Origin: Promethearchaeota archaeon
GTDB taxonomy: Archaea; Asgardarchaeota; Lokiarchaeia; Sigyniarchaeales; SOKP01
NCBI GenBank assembly: GCA_019058445.1
Contig: JAHPZA010000009.1
Span: 658,355 to 722,354, forward strand
DNA: 64,000 nucleotides
Reading direction: 5' to 3'
Shown: piece by piece, positions 52,248 to 58,938 of the stretch
Numbering within the stretch: position 1 is the stretch's first letter
Layout: each line of letters opens with the position of its first letter
Position numbers and translations under genes: made by a program
The notes under the pieces: model-generated
The model's database searches: none
What the model saw: only the letters and a program-made list of their open reading frames with translations
Told to the model about the DNA's origin: nothing

Positions 52248-53774
52248 TTATTTATCCTCACGAATTTCGATTCCATCGGGAAGAGTTACAGAATCAGCAC
52301 TCATTCCTTCTGCTTCTCTAAAATAATCATATGTTCTTTCCCCCACCATTTTCATAAAAGCTTTTATTTCTTTATCCATATCCGGTGGAATTTCAAATTC
52401 AGTGAAATATTTAAGAATTTGTTCAACTTTTTCACTTGCACTCATAATTATGTCTTTTTCACCTTTTTTCCTCCATGTTGTCCGTCTGTTTCTGTTCATT
52501 AATGTAGGCATATATAATTCTTTTTTCATGTAATTTCTGGTATGTTTTTCACTTAAAAAGGTCGCACCTGGTTTTGTTTCAGTAGCAACTTTCTCAATTA
52601 CATCTAATCCAATTGTATCTTCATTTACATCAATACCATTAAAAGCTCTATTAATCATACCAACAATTTCATCGTCAATGAGAACTAATTCTAAGGCTTC
52701 CGCAAGCGTAGCTTCATATGTTCCAGCACATGTAATATAATTAATACCTGCTAAAGCAGCTAACATCAAAGTTTGGTATCGTTCTAGACCATTTTGAATA
52801 TCAAAACATTTGGAATCTGTAACTGCTCCTAAACCTCTGCTAGGAATATTATAAAATCTAGCTAGTTGAGCTATTCCAGCAGTCATAAGACCTGTCTCAA
52901 CTGATCCTATTGCGGAGTTACCAGATCTCATGTCAGTCGAGTGTGAAACAGTTCCAAAGAATACAGGTGCACCTGGATTATATAATTGAGCCACTACAAT
53001 TCCAGCGAGTATTTCAGCATTTGTTTGTGCTAATAATCCGGCCATAGTAACCGGAGCAGACGTTCCAGCTAGTGCCTCTGGAGCGACAATCGTAGGTTGT
53101 TTATATTTAGCAAACACTTCAAGTCCGTTTGTCATTAATATTGGTAAATGTAGGGGACTTGTTGGATTCATAAAACCAATCATTCTTGGTCTTTTTGTCA
53201 ATTCTTCTTCTCCACCTACAAGAAGTGACATCATATCAATCATATCTTTGCTCGCAACTCTTCCATAACATCCGCCACCGTAAGGTTTTCGTGTATTTTT
53301 TGCCCATACATATATACATTCCGTATGGACAGTAAGATATTTAACATCGCTGGGCCATACATCTATATGTGATGCCATAATATTCTCAGTACTATCTACA
53401 ATCCGTATTTGTTTTATGTTGTCATCTAAGACAACTTTTCTATAGCCTCTTTTGTTACTCGGATCATAGATACGGACTGGGGTACCAATAGTCCCAAATT
53501 GTGTACTATGAGTATTAACCTCAAAACTAAATGAGCCATCTCTTCCATATAATTTAAATGAGTCTGGAACATGTTTTAATTGTTCCTTTACTAAGATTTC
53601 AGGAAATTTCACGAAATTAGAATGTTCATCTACTTCAGCTCCATTATCTTTAAGCAGTTGTCGACAATCTGGAGCATCTACTTTAATACCGACCTTTTCC
53701 AATAATTTTATAGAGGCAGCATGAATGGTTTCTATCTCATCCTTTGAAAGAACTTCTAATTTATTTATTTTCAT
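52248..53774 (-). CDS. MttB-superfamily methyltransferase (non-pyrrolysine type; substrate:corrinoid methyltransferase)
   Basis: 508 aa, collinear with Methanosarcina MttB. The frame is uninterrupted. At the Pyl position (MttB ...AGS-O-SDAK) it reads RGLGAVTDSK. Confidence 0.85.
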   Translation of the reverse strand: MKINKLEVLSKDEIETIHAASIKLLEKVGIKVDAPDCRQLLKDNGAEVDEHSNFVKFPEILVKEQLKHVPDSFKLYGRDGSFSFEVNTHSTQFGTIGTPVRIYDPSNKRGYRKVVLDDNIKQIRIVDSTENIMASHIDVWPSDVKYLTVHTECIYVWAKNTRKPYGGGCYGRVASKDMIDMMSLLVGGEEELTKRPRMIGFMNPTSPLHLPILMTNGLEVFAKYKQPTIVAPEALAGTSAPVTMAGLLAQTNAEILAGIVVAQLYNPGAPVFFGTVSHSTDMRSGNSAIGSVETGLMTAGIAQLARFYNIPSRGLGAVTDSKCFDIQNGLERYQTLMLAALAGINYITCAGTYEATLAEALELVLIDDEIVGMINRAFNGIDVNEDTIGLDVIEKVATETKPGATFLSEKHTRNYMKKELYMPTLMNRNRRTTWRKKGEKDIIMSASEKVEQILKYFTEFEIPPDMDKEIKAFMKMVGERTYDYFREAEGMSADSVTLPDGIEIREDK

Positions 53775-53809
53775 TTTGATTCTAACTCTCAGAAATTATC
53801 ATTTTTAGC

Positions 53810-54454
53810 TTATGAATTTAAAATTTTATTAACTAAGGATACCGCTTCTATAGCATCATCAGCCCAACCATCTGCTCCAATTTCATCAGCCCATTCGTCC
53901 GATGTCGGACTTCCACCGACGATCACTTTAAAGTTATCCCGAATCCCTCTCTTTTCTAGTTCCGAAATAAGTTTCCTTTGAAAATCCATTGACATTGTTA
54001 AAAGTGATGACATTGCGATAATTTGAGCTCCAACTTCTTCTGCTTTCTCAATAAATTTCGCAGCAGGGACATCAACTCCTAAATTAAACACCTCAAATCC
54101 ATTAGAAAAAAGAAATGATCCAACAAGATCCTTCCCTATTGAGTGAACATCGCTTTCAACAGTGCCCAAAACAACTTTTCCTTTTGTCTTTTTTTCTTCT
54201 CCTGCAGCTCTAATAGCAGGATCTAAGATTTCGTCGATTATACTTTTTACAGTATCAGCAGAACCAATTAAATCTGGTAGAAATATTTCTTCGTTCTCAA
54301 ATTGTTCACCTATAAATCTCATGATATCACCGATATAACTTAAAAGCTCAGCCGCCGATGCTTCTTTATTCTCAATGGCAGATTTACACATCTCTTTTAA
54401 TCCATCTTCGTCCCATTCTATAATTGCTTCTTTCATTTTTTCTTGTAAAGACAA
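53810..54454 (-). CDS. Cobalamin-binding corrinoid protein (MtbC/MttC/MtgC-like)
   Basis: B12-binding motif D-x-H-x-x-G (GTVESDVHSIGKDLV), MSSLLT and VIVGGS. N-terminal helical cap domain. Confidence 0.85.
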   Translation of the reverse strand: MSLQEKMKEAIIEWDEDGLKEMCKSAIENKEASAAELLSYIGDIMRFIGEQFENEEIFLPDLIGSADTVKSIIDEILDPAIRAAGEEKKTKGKVVLGTVESDVHSIGKDLVGSFLFSNGFEVFNLGVDVPAAKFIEKAEEVGAQIIAMSSLLTMSMDFQRKLISELEKRGIRDNFKVIVGGSPTSDEWADEIGADGWADDAIEAVSLVNKILNS

Positions 54455-57492: not shown

Positions 57493-57570
57493 TCCTTTTT
57501 TTAGATTAACTGATTCAATATAAATAAGAGAAAATAAAAAATAGCGTTTTTTATATCTAATTTGTTAAAT

Positions 57571-58938
57571 TTATTCACTTTTTACGCGTTCCATTTTCTT
57601 TTTATGTAACTCTGCTAATTGAGATTTCATTTCTGCGACGCGCTCCTTCGTGTAAGGGTAAAAATACAATAATATCAAGGTGACAACCATAGCAATACCG
57701 GGGAAGATTACTATTAAAGCCTTTAAACCAAAGATAACATCTGCTCCCGGATTTGGCGTATATGATTCCCATCCTGTTGAACTAAATACCAGCGATACTG
57801 TTACAATACTTAATATCATTGAGAGTCTCATAAAGAAATTTGTAATACCAAAAAATGTGCCTTCTCTTCTAACTCCTGTTTCTAATTCATCATCATCGAT
57901 AGGATCAGCGACAATTAAATAGATGAAGTATAACATACCCCCCATTCCTATCCCTGAGAATATCATAAAGATTAATGCCATAGTAAAAGTTGATATAAAT
58001 AGAAAAGGGATAAAGGCAATAATAGACACAATTACTGCAATCATATATGCTTTTCTACTCCCTAATTTGACATCCAACTTCATCCAGATTATAACTGTAA
58101 TTACCCCGGCTATAAAATTAACCCCTAATAAAAGAGAGATTAAAAATGTGTCAGTTACACCCAGTACATGAAGGGCATAAAGGGGTATTGTCGTTGCGAG
58201 CGTAAGTAATATATACTCATATAGGAAAAACATGATAGTGTATAGTACAAATCCCTTGTTTTTGAAAGCATATTTCAAACCTTGAAAATAGCCGAATTCT
58301 TGCTTATGGTCCAGTTTAAATTCTTCACGCTCTTTTATCCCCCATTTAATAGCGATTAATAAAGATATTGCTATTATAATCGACGTAACAATACCATTTA
58401 TCAGATACCCTTCTTTTTTAGTAAGATCTCCAATAAATATACCCGGAATAAGGAATGCAAAAATTAGTCCGATAGTTGCCAGAATCTGCTTAATAGTATT
58501 TACTTCTGCTCTTTCCTCCACTGAAACAAACATCTCTGGAAATAGGGCATCAAAAAATGTTATTTGGGTGTAGAATGTATCGTACAACAATAACATTATA
58601 AGGAGATAAATGAAAGTAATAAAATATGAATCAGTTGGAGGGAGCCATAGAATTACCTCGATAATCAATACAGCTATCGTTCCAATAATAATAAATGGTT
58701 TTCTTCTTCCCCATTTTGTACGTGTTCTGTCCGAAATATAGCCTAATAAGGGATCATTGAAAGCATTCCACACCGTCCAAATAATGTAGGCAAGCATAAT
58801 ATAAAAAACTGGTAAACCAACTGCTGTGAAATAGAAAGTAAAAACCCAAACATTAAATGCGCTGTTGATGAACCATTGAGCAAACGATCCCATCCCAAAG
58901 CTCCATTTAGTTCCTTTACTGAAACCTGTCGTTTCCAT
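57571..58938 (-). CDS. GPH-family (glycoside-pentoside-hexuronide-like) cation symporter
   Basis: 12-TM profile and the signature GYISDRTRTKWGRRKPFIIIG. Confidence 0.8.
   Translation of the reverse strand: METTGFSKGTKWSFGMGSFAQWFINSAFNVWVFTFYFTAVGLPVFYIMLAYIIWTVWNAFNDPLLGYISDRTRTKWGRRKPFIIIGTIAVLIIEVILWLPPTDSYFITFIYLLIMLLLYDTFYTQITFFDALFPEMFVSVEERAEVNTIKQILATIGLIFAFLIPGIFIGDLTKKEGYLINGIVTSIIIAISLLIAIKWGIKEREEFKLDHKQEFGYFQGLKYAFKNKGFVLYTIMFFLYEYILLTLATTIPLYALHVLGVTDTFLISLLLGVNFIAGVITVIIWMKLDVKLGSRKAYMIAVIVSIIAFIPFLFISTFTMALIFMIFSGIGMGGMLYFIYLIVADPIDDDELETGVRREGTFFGITNFFMRLSMILSIVTVSLVFSSTGWESYTPNPGADVIFGLKALIVIFPGIAMVVTLILLYFYPYTKERVAEMKSQLAELHKKKMERVKSE

Follow-up and report, generated by a model that had tools for sequence, protein, structure and literature searches.

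We describe a five-gene cassette in a 64,000-nucleotide stretch of contig JAHPZA010000009.1 from a Promethearchaeota archaeon (the whole stretch is referred to as the window), in which two paralogous MttB-superfamily methyltransferases lacking pyrrolysine, MttB-A and MttB-B, and a corrinoid protein are found together with a pyridoxal phosphate (PLP) enzyme of Cys/Met metabolism and a GPH/MFS_2-family carrier. Judging by gene content, conservation and pocket residues, we consider it on balance somewhat probable that the cassette would provide an Asgard catabolic route for a methylated acidic onium compound, in which import and corrinoid-dependent demethylation are coupled to cleavage by a gamma-lyase.

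Open reading frames (ORFs) of the window were called and translated, and the products were compared with Pfam and NCBIfam profiles and with solved structures. The five genes were confirmed, and together with the region between the divergent transcripts they are arranged as follows:

52248..53774, minus strand: MttB-A, non-pyrrolysine MttB-superfamily substrate:corrinoid methyltransferase (MT1), core copy; 508 amino acids (aa); PF06253, 349.8 bits
53810..54454, minus strand: corrinoid (cobalamin) carrier protein of the MtgC/MttC type; 214 aa; PF02607 and PF02310
54455..54580, no strand: divergent intergenic region, very AT-rich, presumed to hold a shared promoter; 126 bp
54581..56101, plus strand: MttB-B, paralogous non-pyrrolysine MttB-superfamily methyltransferase, accessory copy; 506 aa; PF06253, 324.5 bits
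56203..57492, plus strand: gamma-family PLP enzyme of Cys/Met metabolism, methionine-gamma-lyase-like; 429 aa; PF01053, 409.5 bits; the ORF from GTG 56194 would give 432 aa
57571..58938, minus strand: GPH/MFS_2-family secondary carrier, presumed substrate importer; 455 aa; PF13347, 208.2 bits; convergent with the PLP gene

An initial annotation of this DNA, made from the letters alone, had described the second methyltransferase copy as followed by a Cys/Met-family PLP enzyme with a convergent GPH-type transporter beyond it, and the profile matches bear this out. It had also placed a DxHxxG cobalamin-binding protein directly downstream of one copy. The protein and its motif are indeed there, but the position needs correction: the corrinoid gene and MttB-A lie in this order on the same strand, separated by a gap of 35 bp, so that transcriptionally the corrinoid gene is upstream of MttB-A, and it is divergent from MttB-B.

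A conserved gene cassette in Asgard archaea

Scanning one genome for each GTDB species yielded 278 relatives, and the best 78 loci were, bar one, from Asgard or unclassified archaeal metagenome-assembled genomes (MAGs). The nearest genome, that of the Promethearchaeia isolate ABR15, is 90% identical. ORFs were called in 87 related loci, seeded with MttB, and matched to the proteins of the window; the informative set comprised the 42 non-redundant loci in which the A-type gene is preceded by 6.7 kb or more of sequence, and the following arrangements were seen in it:

carrier, PLP enzyme, MttB-B, divergent from corrinoid protein, MttB-A: 25 of 42 loci
carrier, PLP enzyme, divergent from corrinoid protein, MttB-A: 9 of 42 loci
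carrier, MttB-B, PLP enzyme, divergent from corrinoid protein, MttB-A: 5 of 42 loci
PLP enzyme, MttB-B, divergent from corrinoid protein, MttB-A: 1 of 42 loci
corrinoid protein, MttB-A only: 2 of 42 loci

The corrinoid gene is found directly upstream of MttB-A in all 42 loci, and the pair is accompanied by the PLP gene in 40, by the carrier in 39 and by MttB-B in 31. Gene orientation is constant and the divergent layout is conserved, and the adjacency outlasts the swap in the order of the PLP gene and MttB-B. The neighbors in the cassette are thus not there by chance, and the cassette is clearly the most stable unit of these loci. The degree of retention defines a core that consists of the carrier, the PLP enzyme, the corrinoid protein and MttB-A, with MttB-B as an accessory paralogue. 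Treating the PLP enzyme as a mere hint of a link to methionine or homocysteine chemistry, as had been done before, understated the case. The loci carry Loki-/Promethearchaeota, Hod-, Hermod-, Thor- and Helarchaeota labels at 58-69% protein identity, and the five-gene cassette is likely to be a core Asgard trait.

The host itself is an Asgard archaeon of a non-methanogenic lineage and not a classical methanogen. The window, with a GC content of ~31%, encodes an archaeal proteasome beta subunit, FttA/aCPSF1, aEF2 and TFIIB, and wherever a homologue of MttB-A or of the PLP enzyme carries a name, it is an Asgard one, with Promethearchaeota, Lokiarchaeota, Hodarchaeota, Hermodarchaeota and Thorarchaeota among the labels. 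The earlier view of a methyltransferase system in a non-methanogen is in line with this, in that a non-pyrrolysine MttB and a corrinoid protein of the cognate type reside in an Asgard genome.

The corrinoid protein carries the B12-binding_2 and B12-binding domains and, in its translation, the motif DVHSIG; an alternative ATG start is present at 54436. Its matches among solved structures are 1y80 (3e-39) and MttC (7xcn_M, 5e-39), and among NCBIfam models it scores best with MtgC (203 bits, cut-off 310); MtbC gives 158 bits (cut-off 350). These scores place it in the broad MtgC/MttC/MtbC class and not in a named specificity group. In the divergent intergenic region (54455..54580) a riboswitch or other RNA element was looked for and no Rfam family matched. 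A scan for sigma-70 promoters and terminators gave counts equal to the shuffled expectation and was set aside, the model being inapplicable to archaea.

A few single loci deserve mention. One contig (L070, DATKTW010000123.1), filed as 'Candidatus Nanopelagicaceae bacterium', carries the full cassette at 69% identity and clusters with the Asgard loci, and it was probably misbinned into an actinobacterial MAG. Sporadic genes occur inside some cassettes, namely a nucleotidyltransferase/HEPN-like pair (judged by eye), an aldolase-like gene and a 100-aa protein, and these are uninformative.

The MttB copies and the PLP enzyme

The two MttB copies belong to the MttB superfamily (PF06253/COG5598), with the PF06253 match spanning residues 2-475 in both. 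They are 58% identical end to end and share several identical runs of 9-12 residues, as had been noticed at first sight. The best solved relatives of MttB-A are MtgB (9yce/2qne, 1e-77) and MttB (7xcl, 7e-71), each over the full length. With the model of pyrrolysine-containing MttB (TIGR02369) MttB-A scores 405.7 bits and MttB-B 370.3 bits, and neither reaches the cut-off of 525.

In the alignment, the pyrrolysine of Methanosarcina barkeri MttB (Pyl334, X334 in 7xcl) falls on Val318, within GAVTDSK in one copy and GAVTESK in the other, and neither ORF contains an internal stop, hence no in-frame UAG. In copy B the codon is GTC, and Desulfitobacterium hafniense MtgB has Leu at this position. Nucleotide-level comparison provides an independent check: the Rfam model PYLIS_3 gives sub-threshold matches at 55538-55637 (plus strand, 27.9 bits) and 52724-52823 (minus strand, 24.7 bits; cut-off 38), both of which begin exactly at the Val codons, with the UAG of the model opposite GUC. 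The claim of valine in place of pyrrolysine with no in-frame TAG holds. The PYLIS_3 matches themselves were ruled out as real pyrrolysine-insertion elements, being below threshold, mostly made of non-standard model pairs and with the model UAG on a Val codon; they are coding-sequence homology and not a recoding signal. Among the orthologues the position is Val in all 45 B-type proteins, and in the 65 cassette-linked A-type proteins it is Val in 32, Gly in 21, Ile in 10 and Cys in 2. As the residue varies among A-type proteins, it is not a critical one.

Hundreds of Asgard orthologues of MttB-A are 63-93% identical to it. Among the 1.84 billion 50%-identity representatives of a protein library, the Asgard clade is present as a single entry (67% identity, 778 bits), the next matches are at 45% (Promethearchaeota label), 44% (Bathyarchaeota label), 43% and 41%, and the bulk of the MttB superfamily lies at 30-38%. 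A neighbor-joining tree, for which MtgB and M. barkeri MttB, both rebuilt from alignments, were the only references (MtcB, MtpB, MtyB and MthB not being among them), recovers the Asgard clade as monophyletic, on a long stem and at ~31-34% identity to both references. By these measures Asgard MttB is a distinct subfamily. The tree splits it in three: the cassette-linked group A, the monophyletic and likewise cassette-linked group B, and a third group of solo paralogues that have no corrinoid, PLP or carrier neighbors.

To locate the pocket, the residues named in PMC13080624 and PMC9842639 were traced in the Asgard copies by alignment. In MtgB, R312 forms a salt bridge with the substrate carboxylate and is conserved in all characterized members, all of which have acidic quaternary-amine substrates, while Y97 and F356 make cation-pi contacts and H348 donates a hydrogen bond (PMC13080624). 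The equivalent of R312, Arg313, is invariant in 65 of 65 cassette-linked A and 45 of 45 B sequences (110 of 110), and the Asgard MttB copies probably still bind an acidic substrate. As this acid-binding arginine is retained, quaternary amines are a plausible substrate class. The three other contacts to glycine betaine are gone in both copies: Y97 is replaced by Ile/Val-Gly, H348 is deleted, as is also seen in pyrrolysine-containing MttB, and F356 has become Thr in A and Ser in B. With these contacts missing, the two proteins would not be glycine-betaine enzymes, and the presence of a conserved lyase partner argues for a substrate other than a simple betaine.

In M. barkeri MttB, Gly110-Thr111 contact the corrinoid, Met249 lines the space between substrate and cobalt, and Tyr364 activates the pyrrolysine (PMC9842639). 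The corrinoid contact is retained in the proteins of the window as G97-T98. At the Met249 position copy A has an invariant Glu (Glu233), also found in the third clade, and copy B has Ala (A233). The Tyr364 position is an invariant Thr348, the adjoining Cys349 is Asgard-specific and nearly invariant, and Gly372 of MttB aligns with the Thr/Ser356 position. Further Asgard-specific invariants are H136, D138, W140, W157, Y165, C169, Y346 and Y353. Relative to A, the pocket of B carries V96, A233, S356 and several Met residues; as they differ at several pocket positions, A and B probably differ in substrate. In copy A, Arg313 and Glu233 would form the pairing expected for an alpha-amino-acid moiety.

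Two known systems frame these differences. MtgB/MtgC of D. hafniense (2QNE, 9YCE) shares with the Asgard pair the superfamily and fold (~33% identity), the lack of pyrrolysine, the acid-binding Arg and a small two-domain DxHxxG corrinoid protein encoded alongside. It differs in keeping Y97, H348 and F356; in addition, the Asgard clade is set apart by the drop from 67% to 45% identity, it is partnered with a PLP enzyme that resembles lyases and with an MFS_2 carrier, and an MtgA-type gene was not found in the window or the 87 loci. The pyrrolysine-containing MttB/MttC of M. barkeri (7XCL, 7XCN), at ~34% identity, is equal in length around the pocket, without the His insertion, and resembles the Asgard proteins in its corrinoid contact and in its corrinoid protein. 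Unlike it, the Asgard copies have Val for Pyl334, Thr for Tyr364, Glu (A) or Ala (B) for Met249, and Arg where pyrrolysine-containing MttB has Tyr at the R312 position.

Among solved structures the PLP enzyme comes closest to the methionine gamma-lyases (MGL) of Citrobacter and Clostridium (1e-93), with cystathionine gamma-lyases and synthases ranking behind them. The PLP Lys, an Asp, the Tyr-x-Arg motif, the catalytic Tyr and the carboxylate-binding Arg are conserved in 53 Asgard orthologues; as in MGL of Citrobacter freundii (2RFV) and Pseudomonas putida (1GC0), the core catalytic residues are kept, with equivalents of MGL Tyr58-x-Arg60, Tyr113, Ser339 and Arg374 all present, and the enzyme is likely to be active. 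It differs from MGL in that Cys115/116 has become Gly, within the motif LYTGSYRLF (MetB-like YxGSYRLF), and in a 21-aa insertion after the 'VLQ' segment that is conserved in 53 of 53 orthologues and constitutes a clade signature. None of the NCBIfam equivalog cut-offs is reached: the methionine gamma-lyase model (TIGR01328) scores 372.1 bits against a cut-off of 549.7, and the cystathionine gamma-synthase model scores 371 bits. As a 429-aa database protein (P0121) is 100% identical to the product from ATG 56203, this is most likely the start of the gene, and not GTG 56194.

A putative demethylation and lyase pathway

Our data show to which family each protein belongs, that the linkage is conserved and which residues line the pocket. 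On this basis we propose the following sequence of events, in which we infer the flux direction, the methyl acceptor, the part played by the lyase and the substrate itself. The MFS_2 carrier would import the methylated acidic onium compound. MttB-A, together with MttB-B where present, would bind it through the invariant pocket arginine and pass one methyl group to the Co(I) corrinoid, giving methyl-Co(III). An unlinked second methyltransferase, most likely of the MtrH type and feeding the tetrahydromethanopterin Wood-Ljungdahl branch, would accept the methyl group, and the gamma-family PLP enzyme would split the demethylated amino-acid skeleton into 2-oxobutyrate, ammonia and a thiol. A PLP enzyme of this family requires as its substrate a free alpha-amino acid that carries a leaving group in the gamma or beta position; a simple betaine offers it nothing to act on. 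The best-fitting substrate would be S-methylmethionine, the demethylation of which would yield methionine, and gamma-lysis of the latter methanethiol and 2-oxobutyrate. We favor this compound as a candidate because it is a cationic methyl donor with both a carboxylate and an alpha-ammonium group, and because its demethylation would yield the very compound on which the enzymes nearest to the PLP enzyme characteristically act.

A bolder version of this proposal is conceivable, albeit doubtful: that Asgard MttB-A and MttB-B are the first MttB-superfamily enzymes to use the S-methyl group of a sulfur amino acid, be it S-methylmethionine or methionine, and that with the gamma-lyase and the importer they would form a pan-Asgard pathway that supplies methyl groups to the Wood-Ljungdahl branch and 2-oxobutyrate to fermentation.

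As to the fate of the methyl group, the third MttB clade, the pocket of which resembles that of copy A, is instructive. Its members are found beside formylmethanofuran dehydrogenase genes (L039:2310-9530, L046:2675-9527 and L041:1798-6764); the FwdB next to the third paralogue scores 356 bits (cut-off 328) and is accompanied by FwdD- and FwdA-like genes, and in L041 the paralogue begins 6 bp after the FwdA-like gene. ABR15 and DZ2S.378, the two genomes most closely related to that of the window, carry this paralogue, and the genome of the window probably has it as well. The presence of Fwd genes beside the third paralogue in the closest relatives indicates that a one-carbon oxidation branch is available in these organisms. 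MttB-B was considered as an obligatory missing second methyltransferase and ruled out, as 9 of the 42 cassettes are without it and its pocket keeps the substrate-binding arginine.

Several observations weigh against the proposed route. The pocket was read by alignment only. As the initial annotation had already remarked, neither the second methyltransferase nor a RamA-type activase is in the window: among its ORFs of at least 100-120 aa, across all 64 kb, no RamA and no pterin-binding, MtrH-, MtgA- or MtbA-type methyltransferase was found, nor is an MT2-type methyltransferase or RamA a recurrent neighbor in the 87 related loci. The characterized non-pyrrolysine MttB members all use N-methyl quaternary amines, and we know of none that acts on a sulfonium compound. 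Instead of a lyase, the PLP enzyme could be a synthase or a sulfhydrylase, as it falls below all NCBIfam equivalog cut-offs, lacks the MGL Cys and carries the MetB-like motif. The carrier (PF13347 over residues 13-431; TIGR00792 at 177 bits, below the cut-off of 231) belongs to a family that is uninformative on substrate, and its homology is a weak clue at most: its best solved relatives are the MFSD2A lysophosphatidylcholine symporters (2e-24), ahead of MelB (2e-18). Finally, part of the conservation may reflect inherited synteny, as some outer neighbors, namely the DedA-like and the 240-aa proteins described below, also recur.

Some of these points would also suit an ordinary betaine-type demethylation, the default of the initial annotation, in which the two MttB copies take different betaines and the PLP enzyme and carrier are adjacent by inherited order, or the carrier imports the betaine and the PLP enzyme does unrelated sulfur-amino-acid housekeeping. 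The retained arginine and the habits of every characterized non-pyrrolysine member are as this explanation would have them, the lipid transported by the best solved relatives of the carrier has a phosphocholine head, the recurring outer neighbors show that there is background synteny, and quaternary-amine use has already been predicted for Asgard MttB-like proteins (PMC11291895). We nevertheless consider it unlikely, for the PLP gene has remained next to the corrinoid/MttB pair in 40 of 42 loci even though the lineages have diverged at the class level and the order is locally swapped, and the Asgard PLP enzymes are a clade of their own with a conserved insertion, of which all copies retrieved are in the cassette (the loci being seeded with MttB, stand-alone copies are possible). 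The loss of the equivalents of MtgB Y97, H348 and F356 speaks against it too.

The ambiguity of the PLP enzyme leads to another alternative, namely that the cassette makes methionine. The methyl group of the onium compound would then pass via the corrinoid to homocysteine, and the PLP enzyme would supply the homocysteine, as an O-acyl- or phospho-homoserine sulfhydrylase or as a cystathionine-forming or -cleaving enzyme, a corrinoid counterpart of betaine-homocysteine methyltransferase. The MetB-like YxGSYRLF motif, the missing Cys and the near-equal scores with the cystathionine gamma-synthase and MGL models (371 and 372 bits) are compatible with this, and there is a precedent in MtgBCD of Ruegeria pomeroyi, where glycine-betaine demethylation by an MttB-family system is joined to methionine synthesis through a shared corrinoid protein (PMC12478193). 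That system differs in being from aerobic bacteria and in having the pterin-binding bidirectional methyltransferase MtgD, whereas the cassette is without an MtgD-type gene and has the PLP enzyme as partner. A homocysteine-binding zinc methyltransferase domain was found neither in the cassette nor in the 87 related loci, and the same is true of a pterin-binding domain; MttB-B, missing from 9 of 42 cassettes, is not an obligatory second methyltransferase. A dedicated importer suits nutrient use more than biosynthesis, and the solved structures closest to the PLP enzyme are those of catabolic lyases. Taken with these points, synthesis of methionine appears improbable.

The least probable alternative, to which we give little credence, is direct demethylation of methionine, in which MttB-A would strip the thioether methyl group to leave homocysteine and the PLP enzyme would convert the latter to 2-oxobutyrate, ammonia and sulfide, so that the methyl group is harvested and methanethiol avoided: the Arg313 and Glu233 pocket would suit an alpha-amino acid, the nearly invariant, Asgard-specific C169 and C349 (the latter beside the MttB Tyr364 position) could aid thioether activation, Asgard archaea in culture are amino-acid fermenters, and Methanosarcina corrinoid systems with an MFS carrier demethylate a methylthio acid, yet the known thioether-demethylating enzymes are of a different, zinc-dependent family, demethylation of an uncharged thioether opposes the favorable direction of methionine synthase chemistry, and the MttB superfamily offers no known precedent.

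Returning to the catabolic route for a methylated acidic onium compound, its setting can be compared with what has been described in other Asgard lineages. Non-pyrrolysine MttB-like and MtbC-like genes were reported in Atabeyarchaeia and Freyarchaeia and predicted to encode quaternary-amine methyltransferases for non-methanogenic methylotrophy (PMC11291895). These share with the cassette the combination of a non-pyrrolysine MttB homologue and a corrinoid protein in Asgard archaea; they differ in lying near MtrH and a glycine-cleavage H protein, whereas here the partners are the PLP enzyme and the carrier and MtrH is unlinked. A full-text literature search found no paper on the cassette and none in which MttB is paired with an enzyme of the methionine gamma-lyase type. 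What is new is a distinct pan-Asgard MttB subfamily with an unusual conserved set of partners, and what was known already is the occurrence of non-pyrrolysine MttB with a corrinoid protein in Asgard archaea.

Of all known prokaryotes, Asgard archaea are the most closely related to eukaryotes; they abound in anoxic sediments, and their diet is still largely inferred from genomes. The cassette bears on the competition between Asgard archaea and methylotrophic methanogens for methylated substrates in such sediments. Should the cassette function as its anatomy suggests, a new substrate class would be added to the MttB superfamily, the known members of which all act on N-methyl compounds, methyl-group metabolism in Asgard archaea would be tied to the breakdown of sulfur amino acids, and enrichment cultures of Asgard archaea, which are notoriously difficult to establish, could be supplied with a specific compound.

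Flanking genes and other features of the window

The cassette is bordered in the window by two further genes:

51257..52201, plus strand: EamA/DMT-family membrane transporter; PF00892, 104.6 bits
59060..60094, plus strand: metallo-beta-lactamase-fold protein, divergent from the carrier gene; PF00753, 35.1 bits

Both flanks are confined to relatives at 82-90% identity. EamA is found beside MttB-A only in loci at 87-90% identity (L001, L002, L010 and L011), and as it is present only in close relatives it is a lineage-specific neighbor and not a core part; the metallo-beta-lactamase-fold gene is beside the carrier only in L001, L004, L010 and L083. Just past the latter gene, the window encodes a 122-aa protein with the DNA-binding domain of O6-methylguanine-DNA methyltransferase (60123-60491, minus strand), a neighbor that is retained in L001 and L004. 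The outer flanks in other lineages consist of a DedA-like membrane protein, a 240-aa unknown protein, paired 370-aa membrane proteins and a P-type ATPase. In many lineages the conserved 240-aa protein (50 loci) and the DedA/VTT-type protein (43 loci) lie just beyond MttB-A, for example at L035:10524-11237 (minus strand) and L031:9544-10263 (minus strand); both are absent from the window, where the EamA transporter takes their place.

Elsewhere in the window, three tandem myo-inositol-1-phosphate-synthase-like genes (34626-38101) are followed, up to 43275, by an inositol-trisphosphate 5/6-kinase-type ATP-grasp gene, two further ATP-grasp genes, a HAD hydrolase and a CotH kinase, and a second Ins134_P3_kin-type gene is found at 24795-25682. 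The inositol-phosphate gene set of the window (34626-43275 and 24795-25682) is unusually dense and eukaryote-flavored. Three DUF998 membrane-protein paralogues (207, 221 and 207 aa) stand in tandem at 17278-19212 (plus strand), a leucine-rich-repeat protein is encoded at 20188-21702 (plus strand), and a 935-aa ORF at 30590-33397 (minus strand) has zero Pfam matches. Closer to the cassette, a soluble-looking protein at 48482-49303 (plus strand) has a methyl-accepting chemotaxis signaling domain as its sole domain, and a ThuA-like protein at 49454-50182 (minus strand) shows a weak, sub-threshold match to the GIFT domain of IFT52.

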